From: Eledone cirrhosa
Lineage: Eukaryota
Direction of reading: 5' to 3'
Assembly (NCBI GenBank): GCA_964016885.1
Contig: OZ024745.1
Location: 94,612,001-94,676,000 of the forward strand
Length of the DNA: 64,000 nt
This document shows positions 3,808-58,507 of the stretch, one piece after another. A program made the translations under genes and the position numbers. Each line of letters begins with the position of its first letter. The first letter of the stretch is position 1. The notes beneath the pieces were generated by a model that saw nothing but the letters and a program-made list of their open reading frames with translations, made no database searches and was not told the origin of the DNA.

Positions 3808-3906
<99 letters not shown>

Positions 3907-4002
3907 TTTTGAGTTTATGTTGGTTGTATACCAACACCTCAGTATGCAGGCTGGAGCACTCGAGGAAGTGCGCAGGTTGGTTTGGTTACTCCGGAGTAGT
4001 GT

Positions 4003-4554
4003 AAAATAAAGTTAAATAAAAGTCAAATGATTAAAATTTACCTTCGTTTATTACTGCTATATATATTTCAGTGACAGCCATCTTTGGCTGTGACCTCTTC
4101 AGGCAGTTTGAATTAGTATGGTATAGACAAGTACATATGTTGTTTAGGTGTATAATATTGTCAATACTCTGATATGCCCAGTTCCTTGTTGGGTTGTTAA
4201 TTCACTGAGGAACTGGAGTCATATGAATTCAAACAAACGAATTTCACTGTCAAAGGTCCCCTTCTCCTCTCATTGGTCAGTTATTAGACCATTCCTCATT
4301 CTAAGTGTTGTTATTGTTGGAGTTAGCTTAAAAATTGATAAAATGTTCCTTTAACACCTTGTCCCTTCTAGCATTTTATCAATTTTTAAGCTAACTCCAA
4401 CAATAACAACACTTAGAATGAGGAATGTTCTAATAACTATACCATACTAATTCAAACTGCCTGAAGAGGTCACAGCCAAAGATGGCTGTCACTGAAATAT
4501 ATATAGCAGTAATAAACGAAGCTAAATTTTAATCATTTGACTTTTATTTAACTT

Positions 4555-4560
<6 letters not shown>
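4003..4560. mobile_element. Fold-back non-coding element with an HHR in each arm
   Basis: 4372-4560 is the reverse complement of 4003-4348 less an internal ~150 bp. HHRs at 4053-4107 (-) and 4456-4510 (+). Followed by (TA)n. Confidence 0.75.
4456..4510 (+). ncRNA. Type I hammerhead ribozyme
   Basis: ACTGC CTGAAGA GGTCACAGCCA AAGA TGGCTGTCACT GAAA TATATA TA GCAGT. Confidence 0.8.
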
Positions 4561-4631
<71 letters not shown>

Positions 4632-8555: not shown

Positions 8556-9437
8556 TTGTCGATAAAAAGTCGTTTAGTGACAATTGACGCCATTAATACG
8601 ACACATGCCACGCCCCTCAAGGAAAGTGATAGAGAGAAGGTAGCAGCACACCGCTGTAAGCCTTCCCTCCTCACTCCCGCAAAAGACACCACGGAATCAA
8701 AAGAAAAATTTGTGGAAATGGGTGAAAACCCCAAAAGTAACAATTACACAAACAAGAACAACAATGACAATAACAACACAACTAACAACATCAACAATGA
8801 CAATAACAACACAACCAACAACACCAATAATGACAACACCAATAAAGGAAAAAAGCAAGCCAACACGAATAACAACAACAACAATGATAACAACACGAAA
8901 GAAAACGGACCCACAGCTGAAGTCACCTTCGCACAGGCGGTCCGAGAAACGCAGACATACAAGGCACTGGACATCTCGAATGCCAAGAAATTGCTGAAAG
9001 AAGCAAGGAATTGTGTAACTTTCGGGGAAGGTGGGGAATTCACAATTACCTTTACGATAGGCGAATCCACCGGGGGCGTATTCAGCGGCAATAGCCTTGA
9101 AGTTCTGGTCCAAATGAGACCAGAACGGATAGCAAGAATACCGCAGCGTGTGTCCCTGGCTGGAGTCGCCTTCATAAACATTTCTGTTGAGGGCAGGCGG
9201 CCTTCATGCTACCACTGTTCAAGAAGTGGTCACCTGAGGGCTTCCTGTCCCCTTTTAAATCCCCCCCCCCAAAAAAAAGACACTTCTGTCCACCCCACAC
9301 ACAACAACACCACAACAACAACCACAACAACACGAACAAATAACAACACAAGACACTGTCCCACCCAACCCCTCCCCACCTATAACAAATACAAAAGCAA
9401 CCACAATAAAACCCCAAAATATACCCCTCCCCACTAA
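8556..9437 (+). pseudogene. LINE ORF1 (gag-like, CCHC zinc knuckle), frameshifted after the knuckle
   Basis: VEGRRPSCYHCSRSGHLRASCP with Asn/Thr-rich linkers. Related reading continues to about 10040 in other frames. Confidence 0.8.
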
Positions 9438-10095
9438 CACGGACGAGGACCCCTTATCAACGTCACCTAGTGACGACGAGAGAGAACCCTTTCAACCGGT
9501 TAAAAGAAAGAAAAGAAGGTACCACATTAACAAAAATGCAACAAACACACAACCACCAGCACAAACAGAACAAACATCACAAACAAAAAAAACCACCTCT
9601 CCCGAAAACATAACACATGATTCAAAATGCAAACACACGCAAGAACAACAAACAAAAACAAACACAACACAACAAAAACAGTATACATACATCAACACAA
9701 ACAACAAAACACTTGTGCAAACAATAGACAAAGATCCTTCGGTGGAAACCGAAGGGAAAATGTTCACCAACGCGGCGACTAAACCGCATTTAAAAATGAT
9801 TAGGTTCCCAAGGGACACCTACGCAATACTCATACAGAATTTTCCCGAGGACGTGGGGAACCCCTGTACTAGACCTAGCAACCGCGTCCTCTTGAAATGT
9901 TTCAAAACCACCACCCCAGACACCCCTCCCCCACCAAATACCGCCACCCCATCACACACTGATGTGCCCACCACATCCAAAACCACCACCCCAACAAACA
10001 ACCCCACCGACACCCCTATGGAAATTATGCAGCCCAGGAGAAGGACAGGTAGGTGTCTTTTCCTTTTTCTCCACTCCAAACTCTTCACCACCAAC

Positions 10096-12820
10096 ATGGT
10101 TGTTATAAGAGTTGGATGTTTATATGTGCGCGGCCTGGGGATGTCCTGGAAGCAGGGCAAACTCTTAAATGACCTCAGGTCGCACAGAATGGATGTGATA
10201 GCTATTTGCGAGTCCGGGTTCAGCAGCGAGCACCAACTGGCCTCCATCTTCGACGACTTTGAGATCTATGCATCTCTCTGTCAGCCGGGGGCTGGGGACG
10301 GGGTGGTCGTTCTGCTGTGAAAACACCTGGGCCTCGCAACACGGAAGGTACACCTGGACCCCGAGGGTCGACTGGTGGTTCTAGACGTCTGCAGGTGGCA
10401 GATTATGCCCCATCTGGGACACCGCGACCGGACTTCTTCCAGCGCCTAGAGACTTTTCTGGGAACGTCTCGCTTCATACTTTTAGTGGGGGACTGGAATG
10501 GTATCCTGGATGCACGTTGGGACTGTGTAGGGGCATGTCTCGATAAAGGGGGTGTAACAGCCTCAAACGGGTAATCGGCCGATTTGATATGGCCGATAGA
10601 TATCGACTTGATTTTCCGACTGTGCCACTGTGGACGTGGACTAATCTTAGCGGAATATCTAGGTCGTACCTAGATAGATTCCTAGTTAGAATTAAGGATA
10701 GGGACATATTAAGCTGTCCACGAATGTTCATGGTTGACTATTAGGATCGCAAGTTGGTGACAGGAGAGGTCAACTTTGATAGAACCCATAGACAAGGACC
10801 CGGTTACTGGAAGCTAAACCTGTCCTTATCGACAAACAAAGCTTACAGTAAGCGGATTAGCACTCTAGTTAAGCAGCGGTTGACGGGGGAAATTGTCAAC
10901 AACAGGTGGTGGGGCTCTCTCAAGAGAGAAATTAGAATAGAATCGATAGGTTTTAGTCAGAAATTAGCATCAGATAGGAATAGAACTAAAAGGGAATTGA
11001 TAGAGTAGAAGAGGCAATTAGGAGGGGCAACGTGGCCGGCGTGCTGGCGTCAAGAACGGTCCTAGACCAGTTCTTTGACCCGAAGTACGAGGGATGCGTT
11101 GTCAAGAGTAAAATACGTACTCTGGGTAACGAGGGAGCCAAAGCTATTAGCTGGGCCCGAGTGACAGGCAAAAAGTTGAAACAAGTCAACGATTCGGATG
11201 TGCGCGGCCTTTCAACGGCGCTTTGCACGACTGTTCGGGAGGGGCGGCGGGCCGGCTGAGGCCATGGATTTAGGTCCATACCTCGACGGTCTGGCGTGGT
11301 TCTCGGACTGGGAGGCGAGGTCCTGCGAAAGGCTGATTTCAGCCGCTGAAATAGGGGAAGCGCTGAGCCAATGTGGCAAACGCAAACCTCCTGGTCTCGA
11401 TGGTCTACAATACGAACTTTATGTAGCGATGCCGGACTTCTTCTCCTATCTCCTCGAGGCGGTCTACTGCAACTGGCAACAGAACGGGAGAATTCCCAGT
11501 TCTGTGACCAAGAGCGTAGTCCCGCTGGTGAGGAAGGACGAGAACAAGGGGATGACATAGATAACTTCAGGCCCATAACTCTTCTTAACACAGAGTTAAA
11601 GATTTTAGCGAAGGTGTTAGCTAAGAGGTTGGCGCTTGTCATCGGGAACCTGGTGGGAGAAGCGCAGACATGCACAATCCCGTACAGGTCCATACACGAC
11701 AACCTGCACCTCATGCGATACATCGTAGAGAGGGTAGGGAACGTACTCGGCTTTGGTGGGGCCCTGATCAACTTCGAGCAGATCGGCACCTTACTGGAGG
11801 AATACGAAAGGTTTACAGGAGCCAAGCTGAACCGGGACAAGTCCGTCCGTTTGCAACTCGGAACATGGAGAGGCAAACCGATGCCCTCCGACGGCGTGGT
11901 CGGACGCTGGACGGAGGGACCGGTGAAGCTGCTCGGGATCTGGTTCGGACCGGACCTCCAGGTGGAGAAAAACTGGGACGAGGTAACGGGCAGGGTGTTT
12001 GCACACGCCCAGAAGTGGGCCGAAGGCAAACTATCCCTGAAAGGTCGAGCAGAGGTGGCGAACACCTATATAGCGTCCGTCATCTACTACCGCTTGACCG
12101 TCATGCCTGGTCCAGCAAAAAGACGCACGCGAAAATGGAGCGCGCGCTCTTCCGATTCCTTTGGAAGAAGCGTTCCCCTTTGGTGAGAAGATCCATCTTC
12201 CCTCAACACCCTTCGAACGGAAGGCTGGAGATGCCGTGGCTGACGATGCGTAGACACGCATTAAGGCTACGGTACCTCCAGGTATTCCTCACCGGTCAGC
12301 CGGTGTGGGCCTCTTTTGTGAGGCGAGCCGTTGGCAGTGCTACCGAGGAGCTCTACCCGTTCGGGACAAGCTCTACAGACACGGGCGCCTGGGTAGGGAC
12401 CCCTCGAAGTAGATCTGTCCAAGATGCGTGCGTGACGAGGAAACCGTTGCGCACGCATTCGTACACTGCCCGGGCGTTGCTCACCTGTAGGGCTATGTGG
12501 AACGACTACTGTCGCGGGTGGGACCAATCCGGTTGACCACCGAGTACATTGTCACGATCAAACCGCCTCCCCCTTTCAAAAACGAAGGAGAGGCGCTTTT
12601 CCTCTGCGTGATAGCTATGGCGAAAGAGGTTGTATGGTGGATGAGGTTGAAAGGGCTGAGGTCAGACACATTTCTCTCCGGCCAACAACTACACTTTTTT
12701 TCAAGTACCATTTTAGAAGAAGGCTCAGAACGGAGAGAGAGGTGCTCTACCTCAGCAAGTTTTATGAAAGGTGGGTGAAAGTGCCGAGTGAATGGGCCTT
12801 CTCTCTATATCAGCCTGTAG
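10096..12820 (+). pseudogene. LINE ORF2 (APE endonuclease - reverse transcriptase - CCHC), disrupted
   Basis: GCLYVRGL..DVIAICES, LVGDWN, GPGYWKLN, PGLDGL, NFRPITLLNTELKILAKVLAKRL, CPRC..EETVAHAFVHC. Frameshifted, with the RT catalytic core deleted near 11776. Confidence 0.9.
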
Positions 12821-13200: not shown

Positions 13201-14269
13201 AGAGAGAGAGAGAAATATGTAAAAGAGACACACCTACACACTTTTATGTAGGAGCCTTACACATTCTTGATGTTATGGTTCAGTTCTTGAATGTGCAGAC
13301 CTGTGACCAAAGTCATTCCAGTTACAAAGGGCTTGTTTTCAAATCCTGCATTGTACATCTAGGATAACATTATCCAACGTGTTTCTTCATTTTAGGAATG
13401 TAGGGTATTTGCTTGATGGAGATTCGACTGCTTTTTCTATCTGATCGAGTTCTAATGGTAGCTCACGCTGTAACATATTGTAGTCGCGGTAGAGCCGTGG
13501 ATTAAATACATTGCAATAGTCAATTACGTTTGTCTATTTTCTAAGTTGTCATCCCATTTTACTACTGTCGATATAAATACAACGACTGATAACAAAGAAT
13601 AAAATAACTGATCATTTTATGTTTTATGTACAATTTCATGTTACAATTACTATAGATTCTAATGCAGTGTTTCCGCTGAAAGATTAATGAATTTAGGAAT
13701 GTGTGGTTGTTTTAATAGCGTCCAATATATTAATAGCGTAATTTCTTTGATCGTTAGATAAAAATAGTCAATCTTTAATTTGTTAATTAGAGCTATAGAA
13801 AGCAAAACTGATGATATTTTTGGAATCAACGTCCTAAATGCATCCTAGAATAGGCCTAATGTCTACGTTACTTACCCCTCCCACTGTTCCCTCGTAACCT
13901 CCGCCTTCTTCAAACCCACCGACTCCCACTCCTACCTCGACTTCACCTCCTCCCACCTTACACACACCAAACAACCCTACTTCCAACGCCACCAGATATG
14001 CCGCCTCTGCAGCCGAGATGCTGACTTCGAGACTCAGGCCCTGTCTCTGGTCAGGCATTTCATCCAGAGAGCCCCCCCCCCCCTCTCCCTCGTCCACGCC
14101 GCCCTCACTCGCGCCCACGCAGTCCGCCTCTCTACCACCTTCACCCAACGCCCTGACTCCTTAATCCACCGTTTCCCCACCCCGCCCACCGCAACATCCA
14201 CCGCCTCTTCCGACGCCTCCAGTCCAACCCATCCACCTCCCCCATCTTTCCACCCACCCCTCACCTCCT

Positions 14270-14720
14270 TCAAACGCGCGCGCAACCTCCGCAACCTCCT
14301 CGTCCGCAGCTCCCTACCCCCAACCACCGCCCCCCCCTCCGGTTCCCTTCCCTGCTCCAGATCCCGCTGCCACACCTGCCCCCTCATTACCAACACCACC
14401 ACCTTCCAAGGTCTCAACGGCCACTCTCTCTCTGTCCGGCTTGCCTTCCACTGCACCTACTCCAACCTCACAGAGTGCAGAGCAACCTATGTCGGACAGA
14501 CCGGACGTCGCCTGGCGGATCGGTTCACGGAGTACCTCCGAGATATTCGTCTCGGCGGGAGTTCCTCCATCGCCCGCCACTTTGTTTCCCCTGGACACTC
14601 CTCCAACAACCTCACCACCGTCTGTGGCCTGATCGAGTGCCATCAGACCCCCGCAACCCACGTTAGGGCCGAAAAACACACCATCTTCACCCTACAGACC
14701 CACACCCGCCCACCCGTCTT
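14270..14720 (+). pseudogene. PLE Cys-linker + GIY-YIG endonuclease remnant
   Basis: My translation: FKRARNLRNLLVRSSLP..PCSRSRCHTCPLI..FHCTYSNL..YVGQTGRRLADRFTEYLRDI..IARHFVSPGHS. Confidence 0.8.
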
Positions 14721-16250
14721 CCTTTAGCCTCGACCGTCCCTCTCCCCCTCCCCTACACACACCCGCTACTAACACCACTAAAACACACACCTCCACTTCC
14801 AGCCACCCCCACCCCTTTGGTCCATCCCACAACTAATAATACTAACAACCCCCACCCCTCCCCCTATCACACGTGCACCCACACACTCAACACGCACACA
14901 CACACACCAGTACATACATACACTCACTCAAACAACTACCACAAACCCCCTCCGACACATCCACATCCGACCACCCCAGCACTAATAATACTAACCCCCC
15001 CCCAACCCACCTTGTCCCTCACCACACATACACACGAACACACAGCACATACATACACTCACCCACACTCACGTACACACCGATACACAGCCCACTCCAC
15101 ATCCGCACTACCACCACTAGCCCGCACCCACTCGCATTCGACACGCCCCACAACTAATAATACTAACACGCACCCTACCACACACACACACTCATACCGA
15201 AACACGCAAACACACACCAGTATATTACACTCACTCATACTGTACCCAGCATCTTTCACCCTCCGTACTACCCCCCCCCCCCCCACACACACATCCTACT
15301 AATACCTCCACTATTATACACACAACCCTCTCATACACACCGCCACCCTCTCCTTCAACTTTGCACACTAACCCACCTCCTCTCCTGTCCACCACACCTC
15401 CGCACACACATACACACATTCCACACACACATACAGACCATTCCTGCCAACTACCACTCGCCTCTCTGTCATTCTCCTAACTGTTATCTCCTCTCTCCAT
15501 CGCATATTTCGCCCTCCCTTCTGCCCCGCCTGCCTTGACCATCTTGACCACTTCCAACTGCGCGCTCCCCCCTCACACTCTCTACTTCCTCTGCATCATT
15601 CCACGGATTCTACACCACTGGTCACACTCTCCAGACATCCACATTTTTATACTCGGATTTTTTCACCATCTGTCCATACACTCACCGGGAAAACATTCAG
15701 GAACACACACACACACACACTTACACTATTTTCGCACACACGCAACCATACATTCCCACGTATCCACACCACACAAAAACACACACACACACACACAAGT
15801 GCTTATCCTCACATACATATACTCGGCCTCTGGACTCCGCAAGCCCCCCTCTCCCCCACCAATCTCCCCACCCCTCCGACCCCTTCTTCATCCACAGGCA
15901 CACGCACACACTGACTTACTCCCAACCTCATGTACGCACTGGTTTTCTTATTACCCGAACATGGAACCTCGTTCTTCCCCAAACTCTCACACTGACATCC
16001 ACACATACACACACACACACGTACACCTACAGACATACACACACACCACCTTCGGACACCCTGTTTCCTTCTCCCCTATCCCCCACCATCCACGCACCAC
16101 CACCTCTACACGCCTCACGCCCTTTCACCACTTGTTTTCATTAACATTTTTTTACCCTCATTTTAATTTTTTTTCCTTCCCTTTAATCCCCCCTTTAATG
16201 TCTTTCCACCACTCCCCCCACACCCTCGGAACTCTTTTCCTCCCACTTTT

Positions 16251-22117: not shown

Positions 22118-22153
22118 CATATATAGAGAGATAGATATATACATATATATTTG

Positions 22154-23066
22154 ATAATAGGAAATACGTTCCTTCACGCACAAGGCGCCAAGGTACGCAT
22201 GTATTGTCCAACCAAATGCCAGTGTGGTTCAATGGCGGGTTAATAAATTAACGAGCCAGAACAAATATAAACAAGGTTTAGTAAATAATGAAAAAGTTTC
22301 AAAGTAAATTTTAAAAAATTGACTTTACCTACTATAGTTACCTTTACCGATCGGTTTCGAATCCCAAAAATAAAACGGAGACCATACGGCCTTCGTTGCA
22401 AAGAAAGATTCTCGTCAGAAGGTTCTTTTCATTCGAAGAATATAAAATTCCTGAATTTAAATCACAAACTAGCGCTATCAAAACTGTTCCTGGGATGAGA
22501 GTGGATGATGTAGAACAGGTTTATCAAGGGCCGTAGCAAAGATAGAGGCAAAAGGAGGTAGGTCAAACTAGCCACAGCTATTGATAGCAGCAGTCAGGAC
22601 GACCAAATTTGTTCTCAACGTTAGTGGAGGTAGTAGTAATAGGAAATACGTTCCTTCACGCACAAGGCGCCAAGGTACGCATGTATTGTCCAACCAAATG
22701 CCAGTGTGGTTCAATGGCGGGTTAATAAATTAACGAGCCAGAACAAATATAAACAAGGTTTAGTAAATAATGAAAAAGTTTCAAAATATCTTTGCTACGG
22801 CCCTTGATAAACCTGTTCTACATCATCCACTCTCATCCCAGGAACAGTTTTGATAGCGCTAGTTTGTGATTTAAATTCAGGAATTTTATATTCTTTGAAT
22901 GAAAAGAACCTTCTGACGAGAATCTTTCTTTGCAACGAAGGCCGTATGGTCTCCGTTTTATTTTTGGGATTCGAAACCAATCGGTAAAGGTAACTATAGT
23001 AGGTAAAGTCAATTTTTTAAAATTTATTTTGAAACTTTTTCATTATTTACTAAACCTTGTTTATAT
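22154..23066 (-). mobile_element. Retrozyme-like family A, second locus: 1.3 units of 482 bp plus inverted arm
   Basis: taataggaaatacg occurs at 22155 and 22637; 22787-23066 is inverted. HHRs at 22340-22423 (-) and 22908-22991 (+). Homologous to the 50121 array. Confidence 0.85.
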
Positions 23067-23145
23067 ATATTTGATATATATTTCTCTTTATCGAGTCCTC
23101 TTTGGATTATAGCCTTCACATTTATTATTATTATTATTATTGCGA

Positions 23146-24664: not shown

Positions 24665-24963
24665 TTATTAGAAATGTTAGCCATCGCCGTATTTTGACTA
24701 AAGAAATTAAAGAAATTATTTAGCCTGATAGTGGGGTTAAGAACCCTCGGAGAAATGGAAAAAGATGAGTATTGACGTACAAGGGTGATGTGTTGGTGTA
24801 AATGGTAGCACAGTGGTCCGAATAACCAAAGATGTGGGTTCGACTCCCATGTACGTCAATACTATCTTTTTCCATTTCTCTGAGGGTTCTTAACCCCACT
24901 ATCAGGCTAAATAATTTCTTTAATTTCTTTAGTCAATATACGGCGATTGCTAACATTTCTAAT
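24665..24963 (+). mobile_element. tRNA-headed short element with an inverted copy of its 3' part placed upstream
   Basis: 24665-24783 is the reverse complement of about 24848-24963, with a tRNA-like head between the arms. Confidence 0.7.
24786..24858 (+). pseudogene. tRNA-like sequence (73 nt), probably a SINE head or pseudo-tRNA
   Basis: Acceptor TGATGTG/TACGTCA, D arm GTG TAAATGGTAG CAC, arm TGGT CCGAATA ACCA, T arm GTGGG TTCGACT CCCAT. The anticodon loop lacks U33. Confidence 0.65.
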
Positions 24964-26512: not shown

Positions 26513-26994
26513 TAATCTTCTATACATAATCATACACACCCGTGTATATTTATCTCTCTATATATAAATATATATAGTGAATCTGGTCCCTTACGATTTG
26601 AACACATATATGTATATATCTGTGTTCGCTTTTCTTTTATATTCAGTTATAATATACGGCTCGGAAAAATCTCTTTTCTAGAGCTTTTTTATTGTAAGAG
26701 ACTATTTTGAGTTTCTAACTCAATATATACTTTTGATATATTCGGCTAATTCAAATGTCGAGTACACCTAGCTGATATTTTTTAGTGGTGTGAGTTTGTG
26801 AGACACGCTAAGTTCAGATACCATGTGCGTTTATATATACGCACACTATTCAGTTATTTAATATACTTAGAAGTGACCATTTCTTCAAATTGTTTTTAAT
26901 TAAGCATACGGTATATTACCAAATATACTATACATACATTCATATATATATATATATATATATAAAATCAAAAGATGGTTTAAAGAGTTCCATG

Positions 26995-27065
26995 TATTTT
27001 ATTATGCGCATTTCAAAAACAAATATCATCATGCGATGACATTTGCGTTTTCGTCAGATAAAATA
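26995..27065 (-). ncRNA. pLTR type I hammerhead ribozyme (3' copy)
   Basis: Minus strand reads TATTTTAT CTGACGA AAACGCAAATGTCATC GCAT GATGATATTTGTTTTT GAAA TGCGCA TA ATAAAATA. Confidence 0.85.
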
Positions 27066-28052
27066 GGGAGACATGATATGAAGGTTAAAAACACTTGTGA
27101 ATAGTGCGGTTTTAAATCAACATATGAATAGTAGTTTTAGATTGATGTGTGAAATTTGGAAAAAAAAATGAAGGGGAAAGGATGAAAAAGAGGAGGAGAT
27201 GATAGTAAAGAATGGAGGGGGAAGAGTATAATAAGAAAGGATGAGATAGGAGGAGAGATGGGTGATAGAGAGAGATAGATAGCTTTTATAACTTAGAAAA
27301 ATATATTGTTTTACAGAGAGAGGTTAAAAACCGTTGGAAGATAATATATAAATTAAAAGAATTTGAAAATTAACGAAGAGAAAAATTTAAGAATAATGTT
27401 AAATTAAGGTTTGTGTATTGAAGGGTTTAATAATATGTGCGATGAAAAGAAATTGTTAATATGTATTAAGAATAATATTGAGTTAAGGTTTGAATATTGA
27501 AGGGTTTAATAATATGTGCGATGGAAAGAAATTGTTGATATGTATTATTAAAAAAATATAAAAATAGTAATGTCATTAAGGATATATTGTGAAAAGAAGT
27601 AGAAGAGTGGATGAATATGTGTAATATATAGAAGTTAGATGAGCATGAAAGGGAGAACAAAGTAATGGATTGAGGATGAATGATCTAGCGTAAAAAAAAT
27701 GTTTATGTTTACGAAGGATTTTTCAAGGTGATAGTATAAAGTATTTAAAAGGGTAATAGTAAATTTTATGGCCAGTGATAGGATGGAAGAAGGAAGAGTG
27801 GATATATTGTGGTGAGTAATAATGAGAATTGGGAAGTATCCAGGAAGAAAAGGTACAGATTAGAGGTTAGAAATTAAAAAAAAAGGAAAACAAGAAAGAA
27901 AGGGAAGTGATAAATAGGAGTGATATAGAATGAGTAACTAGTATTATATAATGTATAATAAATAACATTGAAATAAGGTAGAAATATGGGTATATTTTAA
28001 AAGAAATAGGATTTAAAAGAAAAAGGATTTTAAATTGGTAAAGTATTAGATA

Positions 28053-30450
28053 TTAGCTGTATACCTTATGGAATGTTCTGTGGAATTTATGCAAGCAGAG
28101 AGAAAACAAGTCAGTGCGTCTATTTATTATAGAATCTAAATTAGATATAATGGTAAATTTCTCACATAAACAGAGATTACATGTCTTGGATAGAGAAGCA
28201 TTCAAGTATGGAGAAGCAGAACAAACCCTACTCCAAGAGATGTTATAGTTAATATTTTTGTCTTTCAAGGACCATATGAGTTCTGAGAGTGCGGTGTTGG
28301 TTCTTTTAAATTGGTATTTAAAGGACGAATGATGATTATAAAGACGAGCTTTAAAGGAGGTGGAAGTGGAGCCAAAATAGGTAAAGGAATTGGTGTCAGT
28401 TATAACTTTACATTCATAGATTAAGTTTTTTTCAAGACAATGGTTGTTGAGAGGACATTTATTTTTAACAGGGCAATTACAATTGCGATTACAGAGATTA
28501 ACAGAGTTATTAACAAGTGACCTAGTGTTATCTATAGAAGGAATTGGATTGGAGAAGTTATTTACTATAGGAATAATAGTTTCTTGATTTAGATTGGGAT
28601 TAAGAACATTTAATGAAGTTGCGTTTGACGTTGTATTTGGGTTTGCAGAAATTAGCCTAGATTTAACAATGACGTCGGGAGTACTATTACTATTATTATG
28701 ATATTCAGTGTTGGGAGGAAGAGATTTAGTATTTAGTATTTTATTGTTGTGTTTATAGATAATGTTGGAGATGTTGGAGGAGGTCGAATAGGAAAATGTT
28801 ATAGTGTGTTTGTTAAATATTTTACTATAAATATGTGAGGTGGGAAGCATTTATTTAAGGCACTAAAGAATAATTTAGGAATATTATTATTAATAGAGAT
28901 GGAGAAATGAGCATTATACCAGATTATGTTTTTGTATCTAGGTCTTTTATTAAAGGTATTGGAATGATCATAGAATTATTCTAGTGTAAGGTCTTCTAGA
29001 ATTTGTTTCTTTACTATATTTGATTTTATCAAGATAACCGCCTTTAGAAAGCGCGTTATTATAGTAATTGGCGTTAGCATCAAAGATGTTTTTATTAGAT
29101 GATAGGTTGGATATTCTTTTTCCAATATTACTAACTATATCATTCTTAATATTAGTGGGGTGGTTAAATTTAAAATTAACATAATTTAGATTCTCATTGT
29201 TTTTATGGTAAGGGTAATATAGGCCAGTGTCAAGATTAAGAGATACATCCAAGAAATTAGCTAGTTTGATGTTGCTATCAAATTCAATTTTTAAGTTATG
29301 TTGGTTAAAGAGATTACGTATATTGTTCTTAATAATATTAAGGTTAACTATGTTGCAATTTAAGATAGTAAAAAGTCCATCATCACGATAAATTCCACCG
29401 CGAAGTTGAGGAATTTTCCGATTCAAAGAATTCAAAATAAAGATACCAATTATATCTGTCAATTGGGATGAATCGGATGCTCCCATTGTGATGTCAAATT
29501 TGTTAGAGGTATCAGCTCTGGTCCAATATTCATTGTTGAACTCTAGGATGGTTTTACGTGCGGTGAGAATGATGTGAAGTTCATCTGTGGTGATGTCAGA
29601 ATATTTGTAAGCGAAAGATAGAGCATTATTGAGAAGTGAAGGCGAAATAGAAGAATAGTAGCTGGCAATATCAAATTGAATAAATTTTTGTTTGTTTTTC
29701 TTATTCAATTTGTTGAACCAGCCAATCACTTCAGAAGTACCAAACCATAAATTTAAGTTCGAAGTAGAGCAATTAGAACGAACCTGTGGGATAATTCTAT
29801 CCAAGATGGCTTTGCTAACAATCTCCAGATCTGATTTAGAGGGGGCGATTAGTCTAACAGGTGCCAAAGTTGTTTTTGTGATCCTTGAGATTTATCCTCG
29901 GAGTTCTTGGGAGGAATGGTTCGTTTTTTTTTCCCGATGCCAAGTTTTGACATAATCTCAGAAGCTTCAAAATTTATGGATTCTAAATTATCATGGTTGG
30001 TTTTGCGATATTTTTTCCTAAGTTCCTTAAGGATAAGGTTGTTATAGTTATCCTTAGAAATACCATATAAATTATTTGTTTTCTCGGAGTGGACTAAAAC
30101 ATTTTTTGAGGAATTTAGGTTTAAAATCGTGTTCTTGAGATTTACAAGGTGCTCTTGTCCTCTGTAAGGGTTTCTCTTGAATTTAAGATTTTTTATAATG
30201 TTAGTTAACTCCTCCTCGAATTGCACTAGATTTTTGTTAGAAGGAGGATTTCTTCTAGAATTAAATAAATGATCGAGAAAGATATGTTCCTTGGTATAGA
30301 AGTTCCCTTTTAGGCGCTGGTCATAGAAAAAAGCTATACATCTAAGCCTTCTCATAAAGGAGTCAGTTTTTTCAATTAGAAGTTTGGTGATTCAGATTTA
30401 CCAGGTATAGGAATGTCTTTAGTTGAAGTGGTTATGTTGTAATAATCCAT
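28053..30450 (-). pseudogene. PLE ORF: reverse transcriptase + C-terminal GIY-YIG endonuclease, a few frameshifts
   Basis: MDYYNITTSTKDIPIP..MRRLR; KFIQFDIASYYSSI; FDITMGASDS; GGIYRDDGL; NFLDVSLNL; CNCPVKNKCPL..C..NLIY..YFGSTSTSFKARLYNH; CNLCLCEK..NRR..CLH. Confidence 0.92.
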
Positions 30451-30644
30451 GTTGAAGAAGAAAAAGTGAAAGACCATCAATATGAGAGTTATCGCTCAAC
30501 TGTTATGGAGCAAGTTAATGTAGGAGGTGAGTTTTATTGTAGCACAATAAAGCAATTCAGATATCGTATAAGTAGCACTCTACAATTTGTAGGACTGGAG
30601 TATAAAAATATATAAGATCAAAAGATGGTTAAAAGAGTTCCATG

Positions 30645-30715
30645 TATTTTATTATGCGCATTTCAAAAACAAATATCATCATGCGATGACATTTGCGTTT
30701 TCGTCAGATAAAATA
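30645..30715 (-). ncRNA. pLTR type I hammerhead ribozyme (5' copy)
   Basis: Same sequence as 26995-27065, about 200 nt upstream of the ORF ATG. Confidence 0.85.
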
Positions 30716-32952
30716 GGGAGACATGATATGAAGGTTAAAAACACTTGTGAATAGTGCGGTTTTAAATCAACATATGAATAGTAGTTTTAGATTGATGTGT
30801 GAAATTTTGAAAAAAAATGAGGGGTGGGTGGGTTGGAAAGGATGAAAAAGAGGAGATGAGAGTAAAGAATGGAGGGGGAGGAGTATAATAAGGAAGGATG
30901 AGATAGGAGGAGAGATGGGTGATAGAGAGAGAGATAGCTTTTATAACTGAGAAAAATGTATTGTTTTACAGAGAGAAGTTAAAAAACCGTTGGAAGATAA
31001 TATATAAATTAAAAGAATTTGAAAATTAACGAAGAGAAAAATTTAAGAATAATGTTAAATTAAGGTTTGTGTATTGAAGGGTTTAATAATATGTTCGATG
31101 AAAAGAAATTGTTAATATGTATTAAGAATAATATTGAGTTATTGTTTGAATATTGAAGGGTTTAATAATATGTGCGATGGAAAGAAATTGTTGATATGTA
31201 TTATTAAAAAAATATAAAAATAGTAATGTAATTAAGGATATATTGTGAAAAGAAGTAGAAGAGTGGATGAATATGTGTAATATATAGAAGTTAGATGAGC
31301 ATGAAAGGGAGAAAAAATAATGAATTGAGGATGAATAATCTAACGTCGAAAAAAATGTTTATGTTTACGAAGGATTTTTCAAGGTGATAGTATAAAGTTT
31401 TTAAAAGGATGAGTAATAATGAGAATTGAGAAGTATCTAGGAAGAAAAGGTACAGATTAGAGGTTAGAAAATAAATGAAAAAAGGAAAAAAAAAGAAAGA
31501 AAGGGAAGTGATAAATAGGAGTGATATAGAATCGCAATTGTAATTGCCCTGTTAAAAATAAATGTCCTCTCAACAACCATTGTCTTGAAAAAAACTTAAT
31601 CTATGAATGTAAAGTTATAACTGACACCAATTCCTTTACCTATTTTGGCTCCACTTCCACCTCCTTTAAAGCTCGTCTTTATAATCATCATTCGTCCTTT
31701 AAATACCAATTTAAAAGAACCAACACCGCACTCTCAGAACTCATATGGTCCTTGAAAGACAAAAATATTAACTATAACATCTCTTGGAGTAGGGTTTGTT
31801 CTGCTTCTCCATACTTGAATGCTTCTCTATCCAAGACATGTAATCTCTGTTTATGTGAGAAATTTACCATTATATCTAATTTAGATTCTATAATAAATAG
31901 ACGCACTGACTTGTTTTCTCTCTGCTTGCATAAATTCCACAGAACATTCCATAAGGTATACAGCTAATATCTAATACTTTACCAATTTAAAATCCTTTTT
32001 CTTTTAAATCCTATTTCTTTTAAAATATACCCATATTTCTACCTTATTTCAATGTTATTTATTATACATTATATAATACTAGTTACTCATTCTATATCAC
32101 TCCTATTTATCACTTCCCTTTCTTTCTTTTTTTCCTTTTTTTAAAAATTTCTAACCTCTAATCTGTACCTTTTCTTCCTGGATACTTCCCAATTCTCATT
32201 ATTACTCACCACAATATATCCACTCTTCCTTCTTCCATCCTATCACTGGCCATAAAATTTACTATTACCCTTTTAAATACTTCATACTATCACCTTGAAA
32301 AATCCTTCGTAAACATAAACATTTTTTTTTACGCTAGATTATTCATCCTCAATCCATTGCTTTGTTCTCCCTTTCATGCTCATCTAACTTCTATATAATA
32401 CACATATTCATCCACTCTTCTACTTCTTTTCACAATATATCCTTAATTACATTACTATTTTTATATTTTTTTAATAATACATATCAACAATTTCTTTCCA
32501 TCGCACATATTATTAAACCCTTCAATATTCAAACCTTAACTCAATATTATTCTTAATACATATTAACAATTTCTTTTCATCGCACATATTATTAAACCCT
32601 TCAATACACAAACCTTAATTTAACATTATTCTTAAATTTTTCTCTTCGTTAATTTTCAAATTCTTTTAATTTATATATTATCTTCCAACGGTTTTTAACC
32701 TCTCTCTGTAAAACAATATATTTTTCTAAGTTATAAAAGCTATCTCTCTCTCTCTATCACCCATCTCTCCTCCTATCTCATCCTTCCTTATTATACTCCT
32801 CCCCCTCCATAATTTACTCTCATCTCCTCCTCTTTTTCATCCCCCCCCTCAATTTTTTCCCCAATATCACACATCAATCTAAAACTACTTTTCATATGTT
32901 GATTTAAAACTGCACTATTCACAATTGTTTTAACCTTCATATCATGTCTCCC

Positions 32953-33023
32953 TATTTTATCTGACGAAAACGCAAATGTCATCGCATGATGATATTTGTT
33001 TTTGAAATGCGCATAATAAAATA
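32953..33023 (+). ncRNA. pLTR type I hammerhead ribozyme (inverted copy)
   Basis: Same motif read directly on the + strand. Confidence 0.85.
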
Positions 33024-33145
33024 CATGAAACACTTTTAACCATCTTTTGATCTTATATATGTTTATACTCCAGTACTACAAACTGTAGAGTGCTACTTAT
33101 CCGATATCTGCATTGCTTTATTGTACTACAATAAAACTCACATCC

Positions 33146-33224
<79 letters not shown>

Positions 33225-33227
<3 letters not shown>

Positions 33228-34161
33228 TATGTATACGTACATACATACATGTATACAGACGTACAGTAGTATGTAAATAGATACATACATGCACACACAT
33301 ATATATATACGTATGGGTTTACCGAATATTTATTATAATGTTGGGTTTGTTTGTCAACAAACAGCCCGAATTAAGCCGTACAGTGTTTAGCAACCATCGT
33401 TGCCCTTTTGTTCAACACTGACAGAGGAACGATGTACTAGTTTCAAGCTTATTAGCTATCGTCAGCATCGTATAGCTTACTGCCAGATGGTTGAACGTCT
33501 GAAAGTATATGCTTTCCTTATGCATATTAACGGCTGAGCACCCTAATTTGCATATCGAGTAAGTTAGTCGGCCGGACGCACCGAAAACGATAAATGGCAA
33601 AAATGAAACGAAATTTCATTTCTCACTCTTAGTACGGCTGTTACTTAAATATAAGTATGTACACGTACATACATATATGTATACAGACGTACAGTAGTAT
33701 GTATATATATATACATACATGCACACAAATATATATATATATGTACGTATGGGTTTACTGTACCGAACATTTATTATAATGCTCGGTGTGTTTGTAAACA
33801 AACAACCCGATTTAAGCCGTACAGTGTTTAGCAACCATCGTTGCCCTTTTTTTCAACACTGACAAAGGAACGATGTACTAGTTTCAAGATTATTAGCTAT
33901 CGTCGGCATCGTATACCTTCCTGCCAGATGATTGAACGCCTGAAAGTATATACTTTCCTTATGGATATTAACGGCTGAGCACAAACCGAGCATTATAATA
34001 AATGTTCGGTAAACCCATGCGTACATATAAATATGTGTGCATGTATGTATATATATACATACTACTGTACGTTTGTATACATATATGTATGTACGTATAC
34101 ATACTTATATTTAAGTAACAGCCGTACTAAGAGTGAGAAATGAAATTTCGTTTCATTTTTT

Positions 34162-34163
<2 letters not shown>
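33225..34163 (-). mobile_element. Family B element: ~1.7 units (441-bp period) plus inverted arm
   Basis: HHRs at 33430-33470 (intact, stem I CGATG/CATCG) and 33871-33911 (core CCGACGA). 33982-34163 is inverted. (TA)n flanks. Confidence 0.8.
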
Positions 34164-34222
<59 letters not shown>

Positions 34223-34294
34223 TATATATATATGTGTGTGTGTGTGTGTGTCTGTGTGTGTGTATGTATATATATGTATATATATATATATCTA

Positions 34295-36453: not shown

Positions 36454-36491
<38 letters not shown>

Positions 36492-36499
36492 TAATAAAA

Positions 36500-38965
36500 A
36501 CAAAGAAATAAAAACAAAGAACAAAGTTCCTTATATTAAAAAAACTCATCATTTTACGATCGTTTCTAGGGTGTATAATTGTGTTGGTATGTATATCATA
36601 TAGATCTATGTAAAAATATTACAAATTATCAGAGGAAATATACACACCTTCACATATACATGCTGTCCTCAGAAATGAAAAGAATACTTTGGGGATAAAA
36701 AGAGTTCAATCCAGTGAAGGGTACACGAAAATTTGATGTTATTAAAGAATAATGTTAAAAACGAAGGAAAGTAAAATTTTAGGATAAGGGTAGTAGTGAG
36801 AAATATCAATCTTATATAAACTACAAGAAATCTAGATTCATAACAGGAAATTAAATTAATTTATAGGTATACTTTTAGGTATTAATTTTAGGAAAAGAGA
36901 GCTGTAAGAGGGAAATAAAATTATGAAGTTCTTTGTAGCAAAGTACTAATTATAGGTTAACTAAATTAAAAAAACTAATTATAATAATATGTAAAATATA
37001 AGTGTAAGGTGTATATTAATTAGGTTTACAATATTTGAAGGTTCTTTTAATTCTATTATTGCAAGATATAATTAATTCCTGTCGCTTATTTAATAGGATA
37101 TCCTCAGATTTTATGATTTCAAAAAGTTCCTGGGAGCATAACCTACACTCGTATCTGTTATTTTGATAAGGGGTGGCCCTTGTGAGCACACTCCATGTGA
37201 GGTTGTAATCGATATTCTTCTTTCTATAATTATTAATTGTTTCAACCAAGGATGTTGTATTAGCTAATGCGGCATTTTAAAAACTATGTTTATGGGTATT
37301 AAATCTTATTTTAAATTAGTTAGACGTAGTTCCTATATATGAATGAGTGGAGTCCTTAGTGCTAATTTTACATTTACAGACTATGTTATTAATAAGACAA
37401 TTTCCCTTTAATGGGAAATTTCTTTTGATTCTACAGTTACAACCATTCGTAAACATTATATCAGGGGAGTTAGTCAAAACTGGTGTGGAGTTTACAGGAC
37501 CTGTTATAGGTGAAGGACATGGTGGTTTGTTATGGTTTATTTTAGTATTATTATGGTTGGTTTGATGTAGTGGTGGTATATTTATGTTTTTTTTTACACT
37601 TATATGCGTTGTACGCACTTATATTCTGTTGTATATTTTTGGTAGGTGAGTAGGAAAATTTGACAGTTGATCTATTTAAAATTTGATAGTATTTATGGTT
37701 TGGCGGGAAGTTTTTCTCTAGCATAGTAAAAAACTTTTTAGGGATATTATTGTAAATTAAATGGAGTATTATACCAAGTAACCCGTCTATTACGGTTTCG
37801 ATATAGTTTCTTATATTTATACGATGTATCAGGATGTTTACTAAGAGAGTTACTATTAGTGAATTTATTATATATAGGTTTAGTTAGATTAACTGATTTA
37901 GAGGTTTTAGTCTGATTACTAGGAATTTTGTTAGTAATGTTGTTAACATGTATTTGAGTATTAGGATGAATGGTTTTTTGAAAGTCATTATATTTTATGT
38001 GAGAAGAGGTAGAGAAATTAAGTTTTAGGTTGGTATTTTGGGGTGGGTTTTTCATTTGGTATTTGTTGGTAATATTGGGTTGTATGTTTGAAGTATTTTT
38101 GGTGCAAGGTATAAAGACTAATTTGTTTTTGGGGCCGCTTCTAGCTAAAGCTTCGTTATAAAAGGGCGCGTTTTTATCGAATGCATCCTAGTTAGATGAA
38201 CGGTTAGAGATTATATGCTAGTGAGATATTATATGCTAGGTTTTTAAGGATAGATCTAGGGTGATTGGATTGTGAGTGTATGTAATGTAAGTTTTGGTTA
38301 GGTTTATGGTAAGGTTGGTAGATACCCATATATAGGTCTAAAGTTATATCTAGGAAATTGACTATTTTACTGGTGTTTTCAAATGTAATAGTGAGATTGT
38401 AATAGTCTTTGAGGAAAGTTCTAAGTTTTTTTCAATTTCTGATAGGCTAAGATTAGTGGAAAGAAGAAAACAGTCATCACGATATAAACCACCTTTAAGG
38501 TGAGGAAATGATGAATTAATGTTAAATAGAAGAAAGAGGCCCACAGGATCGGTAATTTGGGCGGAATCACTAGAGCCCATGGTAATGTCAAAGAGATTGC
38601 TATATGTATTTCTGGTCCAGTATTCCTTCTGAAATTCCAGTAGTGTTTGTCTAGCGTGCGTGATAATATTAATGTCATCCATAGTTAAGTTTGATCTATT
38701 TTTGGCAAATATCAAGGCTTTGTTCATGTGTATGGGTGATATAGAGGAATAATAAGCATCTATATCAAATTGTAGAAATGAAGCAGATGATTTATTTATA
38801 ATATTAGTAAACCATTTAATTACTTGGGATGTGTTTTCCCAGAGTGGTAAATTAACGTGTTTTCTTAATTGTGGGATGATTATATCTAAAAAAAAGTTAC
38901 CAATGATGCCAATGTCCGACTTGGAAGGGAATATAAGTCTTATAGAAGGATTAGAGTTAAAGTTA
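36500..38965 (-). mobile_element. Second, 5'-truncated Naiad-like PLE of a different family
   Basis: FLQFDIDAYYSSI, FDITMGSSDSAQ, GGLYRDDC, CNCRIK..YIGTT, CRLCSQE..LLNKRQE. Several frameshifts. HHR near the 3' end. Confidence 0.88.
36550..36677 (-). ncRNA. Type I HHR with ~100-nt stem II insert
   Basis: Minus strand reads CATTT CTGAGGA ... GAAA CGATCG TA AAATG. Confidence 0.65.
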
Positions 38966-38979
38966 GATGCATATATATA

Positions 38980-39721
38980 TATTCCTTGAATTTTCTTCTT
39001 TCTTATCTCCTTCCGTGCTCGTATTAAACCTATTATTTACTTTTTCCTATTACAATACATAAAAACAAACTTGGACCCTAAATAATTCCTCTGAGTTCAT
39101 AATTCATTTAATCTTTTCTTCATTCATTTTATCTCCTCAATATTTTTTTACTTTAATAATACATTTTAATAAATTCCTTTTCGCACATATTATTAAACCC
39201 TTCAATATATAAACCTCAAATAAATACTATTCTTAATTCCCTTTTCTTTAATCTTAAACATCACCATTCATAAACCTCATTAACTTTTAATTTCAAAATT
39301 TTTTTAAATTATATATTATCTTACAACGGTTTTTTTTTTATTTCTCTCTGTCAGACAATGTTTCTCAGTATTAAAGGTTATCTCTCTCTCTCTCACTCAT
39401 TTCTCCTCCTCTCTCATCCTTCCTTCGTATACTCCTCCTCCGTCATCCTTTCCTTATTATTATATTTTTTTTTCTTATTATTTTCTTTCTTCCTCTTCCT
39501 TACCTTTTCCTTCCCCCTTCCTTCTTTTGTTCCCAATCTCATATATCCATCTTATTTTATTTTTCATATGTTGATTTAACGCTTCAATGCTCGCAAGTGT
39601 TTTTTTAGCTTCATATCATGTTTCCCTATTTTATCTGATGAGAACGCAAATATCATCCCATGATGATATTTTTGAAATGCGCATAATAAAATACATGGAA
39701 CTCTTTTAACCATCTTTTGAT

Positions 39722-39725
<4 letters not shown>
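38980..39725 (+). mobile_element. Solo diverged pLTR related to the 26965 PLE, with HHR at 39627-39693
   Basis: TATTTTAT CTGATGA GAACGCAAATATCATC CCAT GATGATATTTTT GAAA TGCGCA TA ATAAAATA; the flanks resemble 32570-33055. Confidence 0.8.
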
Positions 39726-49255: not shown

Positions 49256-50120
<865 letters not shown>

Positions 50121-50122
<2 letters not shown>

Positions 50123-53100
50123 AAGGTTTAGCAAATAATGAAAAAGTTTCAAAATAAATTTTAAAAAATTGACTTTACCTACTATAGTTACCTTTACCGA
50201 TCGGTTTCGAATCCCAAAAATAAACGGAGACCATACGGCCTTCGTTGCAAAGAAAGATTCTCGTCAGAAGGTTCTTTTCATTCGAAGAATATAAAATTCT
50301 TGAATTTAAATTACGAACTAGCGCTATCCAAAACTGTTCCTGAGATGAGAGTGAATGAAGTGGAATCAATTTTTTCAAGGGCCGAAGTAAAGATAGAGGC
50401 AGAGGGAGGTAGGTCAAACCGGCCGCAACTATCACTAGCAGCAGTCGGAACAACCCAATTTGTCTCTCAACAATAGCGGAGAGTAGTAATAATAGGATAT
50501 GTGTTCCTTCACGCATAAGGCGCTAAGGGACGCATGTATTGTCCAACCAAATGCCAATGTGGTTCAATGGCAGGTTAATAAATTAACGAGCCAGAACATA
50601 TATAAACAAGGTTTAGCAAATAATGAAAAAGTTTCAAAATAAATTTTAAAAAATTGACTTTACCTACTATAGTTACCTTTACCGATCGGTTTCGAATCCC
50701 AAAAATAAACGGAGACCATACGGCCTTCGTTGCAAAGAAAGATTCTCGTCAGAAGGTTCTTTTCATTCGAAGAATATAAAATTCTTGAATTTAAATTACG
50801 AACTAGCGCTATCCAAAACTGTTCCTGAGATGAGAGTGAATGAAGTGGAATCAATTTTTTCAAGGGCCGAAGTAAAGATAGAGGCAGAGGGAGGTAGGTC
50901 AAACCGGCCGCAACTATCACTAGCAGCAGTCGGAACAACCCAATTTGTCTCTCAACAATAGCGGAGAGTAGTAATAATAGGATATGTGTTCCTTCACGCA
51001 TAAGGCGCTAAGGGACGCATGTATTGTCCAACCAAATGCCAATGTGGTTCAATGGCAGGTTAATAAATTAACGAGCCAGAACATATATAAACAAGGTTTA
51101 GCAAATAATGAAAAAGTTTCAAAATAAATTTTAAAAAATTGACTTTACCTACTATAGTTACCTTTACCGATCGGTTTCGAATCCCAAAAATAAACGGAGA
51201 CCATACGGCCTTCGTTGCAAAGAAAGATTCTCGTCAGAAGGTTCTTTTCATTCGAAGAATATAAAATTCTTGAATTTAAATTACGAACTAGCGCTATCCA
51301 AAACTGTTCCTGAGATGAGAGTGAATGAAGTGGAATCAATTTTTTCAAGGGCCGAAGTAAAGATAGAGGCAGAGGGAGGTAGGTCAAACCGGCCGCAACT
51401 ATCACTAGCAGCAGTCGGAACAACCCAATTTGTCTCTCATCAATAGCGGAGAGTAGTAATAATAGGATATGTGTTCCTTCACGCATAAGGCGCTAAGGGA
51501 CGCATGTATTGTCCAACCAAATGCCAATGTGGTTCAATGGCAGGTTAATAAATTAACGAGCCAGAACATATATAAACAAGGTTTAGCAAATAATGAAAAA
51601 GTTTCAAAATAAATTTTAAAAAATTGACTTTACCTACTATAGTTACCTTTACCGATCGGTTTCGAATCCCAAAAATAAACGGAGACCATACGGCCTTCGT
51701 TGCAAAGAAAGATTCTCGTCAGAAGGTTCTTTTCATTCGAAGAATATAAAATTCTTGAATTTAAATTACGAACTAGCGCTATCCAAAACTGTTCCTGAGA
51801 TGAGAGTGAATGAAGTGGAATCAATTTTTTCAAGGGCCGAAGTAAAGATAGAGGCAGAGGGAGGTAGGTCAAACCGGCCGCAACTATCACTAGCAGCAGT
51901 CGGAACAACCCAATTTGTCTCTCAACAATAGCGGAGAGTAGTAATAATAGGATATGTGTTCCTTCACGCATAAGGCGCTAAGGGACGCATGTATTGTCCA
52001 ACCAAATGCCAATGTGGTTCAATGGCAGGTTAATAAATTAACGAGCCAGAACATATATAAACAAGGTTTAGCAAATAATGAAAAAGTTTCAAAATAAATT
52101 TTAAAAAATTGACTTTACCTACTATAGTTACCTTTACCGATCGGTTTCGAATCCCAAAAATAAACGGAGACCATACGGCCTTCGTTGCAAAGAAAGATTC
52201 TCGTCAGAAGGTTCTTTTCATTCGAAGAATATAAAATTCTTGAATTTAAATTACGAACTAGCGCTATCCAAAACTGTTCCTGAGATGAGAGTGAATGAAG
52301 TGGAATCAATTTTTTCAAGGGCCGAAGTAAAGATAGAGGCAGAGGGAGGTAGGTCAAACCGGCCGCAACTATCACTAGCAGCAGTCGGAACAACCCAATT
52401 TGTCTCTCAACAATAGCGGAGAGTAGTAATAATAGGATATGTGTTCCTTCACGCATAAGGCGCTAAGGGACGCATGTATTGTCCAACCAAATGCCAATGT
52501 GGTTCAATGGCAGGTTAATAAATTAACGAGCCAGAACATATATAAACAAGGTTTAGCAAATAATGAAAAAGTTTCAAAATAAATTTTAAAAAATTGACTT
52601 TACCTACTATAGTTACCTTTACCGATCGGTTTCGAATCCCAAAAATAAACGGAGACCATACGGCCTTCGTTGCAAAGAAAGATTCTCGTCAGAAGGTTCT
52701 TTTCATTCGAAGAATATAAAATTCTTGAATTTAAATTACGAACTAGCGCTATCCAAAACTGTTCCTGAGATGAGAGTGAATGAAGTGGAATCAATTTTTT
52801 CAAGGGCCGAAGTAAAGATAGAGGCAGAGGGAGGTAGGTCAAACCGGCCGCAACTATCACTAGCAGCAGTCGGAACAACCCAATTTGTCTCTCAACAATA
52901 GCGGAGAGTAGTAATAATAGGATATGTGTTCCTTCACGCATAAGGCGCTAAGGGACGCATGTATTGTCCAACCAAATGCCAATGTGGTTCAATGGCAGGT
53001 TAATAAATTAACGAGCCAGAACATATATAAACAAGGTTTAGCAAATAATGAAAAAGTTTCAAAATAAATTTTAAAAAATTGACTTTACCTACTATAGTTA

Positions 53101-53297
53101 CCTTTACCGATCGGTTTCGAATCCCAAAAATAAACGGAGACCATACGGCCTTCGTTGCAAAGAAAGATCCTCGTCAGAAGGTTCTTTTCATTCGAAGAAT
53201 ATAAAATTCTTGAATTTAAATTACGAACTAGCGCTATCCAAAACTGTTCCTGAGATGAGAGTGAATGAAGTGGAATCAATTTTTTCAAGGGCCGAAG
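50121..53297 (-). repeat. Tandem array of 6.5 near-identical 485-bp units, each with a type I HHR (retrozyme-like family A)
   Basis: Units start at 50121, 50606, 51091, 51576, 52061, 52546 and 53031. Minus-strand HHRs at 50190-50272, 50675-50757, 51160-51242, 51645-51727, 52130-52212, 52615-52697 and 53100-53182. Confidence 0.95.
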
Positions 53298-53635
53298 GAA
53301 CAGTTTTGGATAGCGCTAGTTCGTAATTTAAATTCAAGAATTTTATATTCTTCGAATGAAAAGAACCTTCTGACGAGAATCTTTCTTTGCAACGAAGGCC
53401 GTATGGTCTCCGTTTATTTTTGGGATTCGAAACCGATCGGTAAAGGTAACTATAGTAGGTAAAGTCAATTTTTTAAAATTTATTTTGAAACTTTTTCATT
53501 ATTTGCTAAACCTTGTTTATATATGTTCTGGCTCGTTAATTTATTAACCTGCCATTGAACCACATTGGCATTTGGTTGGACAATACATGCGTCCCTTAGC
53601 GCCTTATGCGTGAAGGAACACATATCCTATTATTA
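53296..53635 (+). repeat. Inverted arm of the array
   Basis: Reverse complement of 52912-53251, with 2-bp (ag) microhomology at the junction. Ends in (TA)n. Confidence 0.95.
53365..53447 (+). ncRNA. Type I hammerhead ribozyme, family A
   Basis: ACCTT CTGACGA GAATCTT..AACG A AGGCC GTAT GGTCT C CGTT..GGGATTC GAAA CCGATCGG TA AAGGT; cleavage predicted after GUA (53442). Confidence 0.9.

Positions 53636-58443: not shown

Positions 58444-58445
<2 letters not shown>
57175..58445 (+). mobile_element. 5'-truncated Tx1-like LINE copy (RT region joined to 3' UTR) in (CTAT)n
   Basis: KSPGLDGLPYEFY, LDQSKAFDRVDH, SIRQECPLS, SAYTDDV; 3' aataaa then (CTAT)n. Confidence 0.88.
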
Positions 58446-58493
<48 letters not shown>

Positions 58494-58507
58494 GTCTATC
58501 TATCTAT

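Follow-up and report, generated by a model that had tools for sequence, protein, structure and literature searches.

We analysed a window of 64,000 nt (the whole stretch of DNA considered here: Eledone cirrhosa, assembly GCA_964016885.1, contig OZ024745.1, positions 94,612,001 to 94,676,000, forward strand) containing a Penelope-like element (PLE) at 26942..33224, which the sequence and self-comparison resolve from left to right into a (TA)n tract, a minus-strand main arm, an inverted arm and a second (TA)n tract. We read it as a decayed insertion of the Hydra clade of PLEs in a TA microsatellite, with arms that end before hairpins predicted to position the start of reverse transcription, and with intact Hydra enzymes that probably also move two families of small non-coding hammerhead repeats in the window, B and A; we give this reading a probability of about two in three. 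The layout (partial tandem, inverted copy and one-sided tail) is the published PLE layout (PMC8557442; this and the other papers cited were available in part). On its own the element is ordinary, and its value is as a test case in which both ends, both hairpins and the coding sequence lie beside non-coding hammerhead repeats that bear the hairpin. Its features are listed by window position (ORF stands for open reading frame, pLTR for pseudo-long terminal repeat, RT for reverse transcriptase and UTR for untranslated region).

26942..26963, no strand: left (TA)n target tract
26965..27931, minus: downstream pLTR copy (3' UTR end), terminating at the 'short' end, 39-44 nt beyond the ribozyme cut
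26995..27065, minus: type I hammerhead 1, with 8-bp stem I and palindromic stem III loop; predicted cut after 27003
28053..30450, minus: Hydra-clade ORF; RT with intact YRDD core, Asn/Ser/Thr-rich insert, CxCX5C linker and C-terminal GIY-YIG; five frameshifts
30451..30652, minus: leader, about 200 nt from ribozyme cut to ATG, containing both predicted hairpins
30494..30511, minus: predicted leader hairpin 2, at +141 from the cut; the long end stops 6 nt before it
30577..30601, minus: predicted leader hairpin 1, at +51 from the cut; the short end stops 7-12 nt before it
30601..31532, minus: upstream pLTR, a tandem copy that is partial and, through a deletion, lacks 59 nt present in the other two pLTR copies
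30645..30715, minus: type I hammerhead 2, 3650 nt from hammerhead 1; predicted cut after 30653
31530..31532, no strand: arm junction with 3-nt microhomology
31530..33148, plus: inverted 5'-truncated copy (endonuclease end, 3' UTR, pLTR, tail of about 90 nt), stopping at the 'long' end
32953..33023, plus: type I hammerhead 3; predicted cut after 33015
33149..33224, no strand: right (TA)n target tract

The first-pass annotation had described a 1.6-kb inverted copy of the 3' end and (TA)n on both flanks. Self-comparison bears out both: the inverted copy (31530-33148) is 1619 nt long and 97.7% identical to 28490-26951 over 1542 nt, and TA tracts lie at 26942-26963 and 33149-33224. The unit length is 3650 nt, and the 3' UTR is 1050 nt long. 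Three hammerheads, two of them exactly 3650 nt apart (cuts after 27003 and 30653), had also been noted correctly. A descriptor scan places them at -27057, -30707 and +32961, identical in core, stems and sequence, and a strict-core scan found 19 hammerheads within the window against none in each of 30 block shuffles. The element's ribozyme calls are those of the descriptor scan; Rfam at E<=1 gave no hammerhead at the three sites, returning microsatellite microRNA noise instead.

The ORF runs on the minus strand from an ATG at 30450 to a stop at 28053 with the RT first and GIY-YIG last, for which 'RT plus C-terminal GIY-YIG, few frameshifts' was a fair description. Frameshift-aware alignment to two related proteins, P0007 and P0008 (about 41% identity over 708-737 residues), places five frameshifts at approximately 30390, 29930, 29860, 28970 and 28830, with no in-frame stop on the aligned path. 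The uninterrupted RT-endonuclease ORF of an autonomous copy is therefore lacking, and this copy is dead as assembled. Other copies exist: many contigs cover the whole ORF, some of them differing at the frameshift sites 29936 and 30389. Pfam returned nothing meaningful for the three ORF pieces and a sub-threshold GIY-YIG match for P0007; the alignment had no match in PDB, and no relatives of the element were found among viral contigs.

Judged by its motifs, the element almost certainly belongs to the Hydra clade, which is marked by an endonuclease that is C-terminal and lacks CCHH, a CxCX5C linker, CxxC and CxH motifs, RWK and DKT motifs, canonical hammerheads and (TA)n targets (PMC8557442). 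It has a single ORF with a C-terminal GIY-YIG endonuclease (though broken by the frameshifts), the linker CNCPVKNKC, no CCHH and a single Cys from the LIY to the YFG motif, CxxC and CxH on either side of the catalytic E and N (CNLCLCE..INRR..CLH), a predicted canonical hammerhead near the 3' end, and an insertion site in (TA)n. DKT reads EKT here and RWK reads RCI, with D at 30083 in all contigs and reads of other copies compared and W at 30338 in other copies compared; the third residue of the latter motif is I rather than K, a position at which close homologs vary too. There is no insertion-in-fingers domain (IFD), as motif A to B aligns without gaps to P0007/P0008 and, judged by eye, the stretch before motif B is as long as in the Hydra rows of fig. 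S7 (PMC8557442). The 3650-nt unit exceeds the 'generally' <3 kb given for Hydra, a criterion that is not diagnostic. Cluster representatives searched at E<=1e-30 yielded 172 proteins; a Cys linker follows the RT in 35 of 40 long homologs and precedes it in none of the 40. In a tree built without labelled Hydra references, the RT falls together with P0007-9 and three proteins of Argonauta hians (FastTree support 0.997), in keeping with an octopod host. Among 156 proteins examined, none was a copy of Hydra-1_Obim by motif match. The element is a new, longer-than-usual, decayed member of the Hydra clade, which has already been reported in octopus.

Leader hairpins and insertion ends

The two arms terminate at different distances downstream of the ribozyme cut, the short end at 39-44 nt and the long end at 133-135 nt; a +52 assigned automatically to the short end reaches too far, into TA microhomology. 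Both leader hairpins are predicted CUC..GAG stems, one lying just beyond each end. A second Hydra element in the window terminates at the same short site:

36490..39724 (left limit approximate): a more decayed sister Hydra element, with a minus-strand ORF remnant and an inverted pLTR that holds a hammerhead at +39635

Between the two elements 115 of 120 positions of the hammerhead block are kept, against only 335 of 471 in the upstream pLTR. The sister's ORF arm has no hammerhead before its left TA tract.

Related elements show the same hairpins. From 79 related metagenome loci, 54 with a hammerhead, we obtained 31 leaders reaching the ORF start (24 distinct families). At least one hairpin motif is present in 31/31 and two in 27/31 (shuffle means 1.7 and 0.025). 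Of 53 distinct motifs, 50 have complementary bases in the closing pair (45 G-C, 4 T-A, 1 A-T). Thirteen related terminal copies could be compared with a family partner, and 10 of these end 0-8 nt short of a hairpin, five at hairpin 1 and five at hairpin 2. Within the window the motif has 26 matches (shuffle mean 9.1), including five repeats of the family B array; further copies lie in other repeats at -952, +3737, +45120, +62330, -62589 and -63273. One such hairpin can be seen by eye in the published Hydra-2_Amil consensus, where it goes unremarked in the available part of PMC8557442. A literature search, outside which most subscription papers and Repbase reports fell, found no paper describing leader hairpins. 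Taken together, these sequence patterns suggest that the hairpins probably set the RT start sites.

Families A and B and competing explanations

The hairpins recur beside the ends of the non-coding repeats:

50113..53635, no strand: family B array; 485-nt units plus inverted arm, one type I hammerhead per unit, predicted hairpin 4 nt beyond the long end
22131..23081, no strand: second family B insertion with the same two ends
3905..4561 (4002-4561 also used): family A two-armed insertion; long-loop variant of hairpin 1, 4-5 nt beyond the short end

Self-comparison supports the earlier claim that families A and B share the element's two-armed layout. They likewise have TA on their flanks and a pair of fixed ends spaced about 95-115 nt. 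The pattern CTCC-N6-GTTGAG is present at seven places in the window against a chance mean of 0.04, one of them the element's leader and the other six in family B, and is predicted to fold alike in both settings. The two separate B insertions are 91-93% alike, and in each the hairpin lies in register 4-6 nt beyond the long end. One of six internal family B units (near 51440; window 50466-52906) fails the exact hairpin pattern. A second pattern, TACTCC..GAGTGCT, occurs four times (leader, its inverted copy, family A and one other repeat; chance mean 0.03).

PLEs have already been proposed as mobilising partners of retrozymes (PMC7229834; bioRxiv 10.64898/2026.07.22.740005). We lean, somewhat less firmly than on the role of the hairpins, towards Hydra-clade enzymes as movers of families B and A. 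The shared hairpin would narrow the helper candidate to the Hydra clade and not to the element's own subfamily. The first-pass annotation had made the element itself a candidate helper. For this copy that is very improbable because of its five frameshifts, while at the level of the clade the idea gains support from a predicted hairpin or variant 4-6 nt beyond one end of each family. The suggestion that families A and B derive from the element's own pLTR was rejected, as blastn gave low-complexity matches only.

A number of observations weigh against the reading as a whole. A two-armed layout with TA flanks is generic to PLEs, and the hairpin is the specific link. In family B the short end is followed by only the 5' half of the motif; in family A the hairpin loop is about 29 nt, the minimum-energy fold differs, and the register was measured at the short end only. 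The hairpin patterns were written after the sequences had been inspected, the 31 leaders are not independent, and the leader as a whole shows no folding advantage over shuffled versions (z -0.24). Of 21 terminal copies in all, 8 lacked a family partner as reference, and of the 13 that had one, three do not fit (loci L021, L063 and L066). In Poseidon_Ac an AC-rich stem-loop within the ORF holds the RT starts, 111-118 nt in, and ribozyme cleavage is dispensable for Poseidon in vitro, leaving a circle step unsupported there (PMC11167929). The minimum-energy hammerhead fold invades the catalytic core: free energies are -15.8 against -10.8 with an open core for the monomer and -44.9 against -41.5 for the dimer. 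With open-core folds 3-5 kcal/mol above the alternatives, predicted cleavage may need a dimer or protein help; minimal PLE hammerheads are poor cleavers in vitro (PMC4209133). The three pLTR copies are unequally diverged, which a single template explains only with later conversion. Finally, other PLE types in the window (13849-14724, by eye) could be helpers.

The strongest competitor, an appreciable possibility short of even odds, ties families A and B, as remnants or partners, to PLE families other than the element's (Neptune, Poseidon or further Hydra subfamilies); the shared hairpin would then come from common pLTR ancestry and not from cross-mobilisation by the element's own family. A sensitive blastn (word size 7) of the element's pLTR and leader against both families yielded only short low-complexity matches, the two families carry hammerheads different from the element's, and retrozymes are reported to derive from the pLTRs of many PLE families (bioRxiv 10.64898/2026.07.22.740005). 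Against this, retention of both ends and of the hairpin register in the two family B insertions points to a Hydra-type enzyme, whatever its subfamily.

It is unlikely that the hairpins are instead a promoter, translation or protein-binding element, near which insertion ends cluster through microhomology with the TA-rich target. Their position 30-140 nt upstream of the ATG in related leaders would suit such a role, as would the TA microhomology of up to 5-6 nt at the short end. The long end, however, has only about 2 nt of microhomology, and of the 10 related ends that fit, five stop 1-8 nt before a hairpin although no TA flanks them.

A further alternative takes the frameshifts, and the identity of the inner arms, for errors of assembly or polishing in a copy that is young and intact. 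One frameshift does lie in an A-run, and the inner 600 nt of the arms are identical (27891-28490 versus 31530-32129) while the outer 967 nt carry 27 substitutions (Fisher p 6e-6). Most frameshifts fall outside homopolymers, however, and the substitutions in the RW and DKT motifs are not seen in other copies, making this explanation quite improbable. Private substitutions in the three pLTR copies number 22, 13 and 9 in 795 sites. Their divergence is mosaic, with 15/20 versus 0/12 sites singling out the upstream copy (p 3e-5, with boundaries chosen after looking). Sites singling out the upstream pLTR split 5 to 5 by an outgroup of 71% identity, as conversion predicts; this polarising uses that outgroup and one read-supported site, 27832. 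We infer that a single template would account for these data if each copy then diverged by about 1.4% and the arms underwent conversion; two templates, or assembly collapse behind the identical inner arms, are possible.

Still less probable is a linear cut-to-cut RNA of 3650 nt as template, primed at its 3' end. Two identical hammerheads in the same orientation 3650 nt apart would release such an RNA, and the palindromic stem III permits a dimer fold. The DNA ends, however, include 39-44 and 133-135 nt beyond the cut, the main arm exceeds one unit, and a linear monomer would require internal priming at its 5' end and a jump to its 3' end. Since the bases at the ends would be the 5' end of a cut-to-cut RNA, the template must cross the ribozyme site, and a linear RNA of that kind cannot have served alone. 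The earlier claim that cleavage releases a 3650-nt unit RNA stands as a possible event while failing as an account of a sole linear template. The template would be a ligated circle or an uncut tandem transcript, which the sequence fits alike; a circle has been proposed for more-than-unit copies together with dimer cleavage (PMC4209133), and an uncut tandem transcript is favoured in vitro for Poseidon (PMC11167929).

Membership of the Naiad clade, as first annotated, has a negligible probability and was rejected: although (TA)n targeting, the inverted copy and a length of 3.4-4.4 kb are Naiad-like, Naiads are defined by an N-terminal GIY-YIG domain and an absence of canonical hammerheads (PMC8557442), and the element has its endonuclease after the RT, three canonical hammerheads, and no DKA motif, CCHH motif or IFD. 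Its identification as a PLE holds. The motifs first taken as Naiad, a CNC..CPL..C linker and a KxIPIP N-terminus, are Hydra-clade motifs according to PMC8557442, in which a KNIP(I/T)P-type N-terminus occurs in Hydra proteins and the ORF matches the Hydra rows of fig. S7 by eye.

Several other repeats were observed. In the window a further hammerhead family (33147-34275 and 1238-2001, with units spaced by about 441 nt, and hammerheads found at -33465 and +1604) begins directly at the element's right TA tract, and at metagenome locus L065:2541-2924 a second small two-armed hammerhead element lies directly behind the TA tract of a Hydra insertion. A third Hydra ORF fragment (3-410, minus) runs off the window start. 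The PLE remnant at 13849-14724 (plus) has a CxxC linker and is Neptune-like by eye, with no Pfam match. Decayed non-LTR retrotransposon ORFs with RT-like motifs by eye lie at 9259-12533 and 57044-61101, and a tRNA-like match at 24787-24858 (plus; 43.1 bits, above the Rfam gathering score) is possibly the head of a short interspersed nuclear element.

Proposed cycle and comparison with known systems

Under our reading of a decayed Hydra insertion, the cycle would begin with the GIY-YIG domain nicking both (TA)n strands, as the flanks and Poseidon biochemistry suggest. The RT would then prime internally on an RNA that crosses the ribozyme site, presumably either a ligated 3650-nt circle or an uncut more-than-unit transcript. 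One strand would start before hairpin 1 and copy 1.25 units to give the pLTR tandem, and the other would start before hairpin 2 and copy 0.44 unit to give the inverted arm with its tail of about 90 nt. Joining of the arms at the 3-nt microhomology would complete the insertion, the junction itself being observed. Later mutation would account for the five frameshifts observed, and the inner arms were probably homogenised by gene conversion.

More tentatively, and at somewhat under an even chance, Hydra enzymes may read a portable twin-hairpin signal that fixes two RT starts on a ribozyme-made circular RNA, one per nicked (TA)n strand, with any hairpin-bearing hammerhead RNA, families A and B among them, moved in trans. 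If true, this would provide a defined cis code for the one-sided PLE tail and a named helper of animal retrozymes, bearing on how telomerase relatives choose internal start sites and on which enzyme moves animal retrozymes.

The closest known systems are members of the Hydra clade such as Hydra-1_Obim of Octopus bimaculoides (PMC8557442), which the element resembles in domain order, CxCX5C, CxxC and CxH, absence of CCHH, RW and DKT, a canonical hammerhead near the 3' end and a (TA)n target; its inverted 5'-truncated copy is like that of Penelope-13_HM. It differs in its unit of 3650 nt, against listed consensus lengths of 1.1-3.0 kb, in its 1050-nt 3' UTR and Asn/Ser/Thr-rich insert before the linker, and in its tail, about 90 nt long where that paper gives 30-40 bp for PLEs. 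Poseidon_Ac of Anolis (PMC11167929) is alike in having two internal RT starts that bound the tail, an AT-rich target, both strands cut and extended, and a hammerhead upstream of the starts; it belongs to a different clade, and the available part of its description reports no twin CUC/GAG hairpins. The PLE hammerheads of PMC4209133 likewise lie in both pLTRs and have a palindromic stem III. That paper, in its available part, places no start sites, which the element's hairpins are predicted to do, and the element's ribozyme is known from sequence and fold. Metazoan non-LTR retrozymes (PMC7229834; bioRxiv 10.64898/2026.07.22.740005) resemble family B in their tandem arrays with one type I hammerhead per unit. 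The available parts of these papers name no cis signal or clade-specific helper, whereas here the shared hairpin points to Hydra; what the present locus would add to the known systems is the register between hairpins and ends and its sharing with families A and B.

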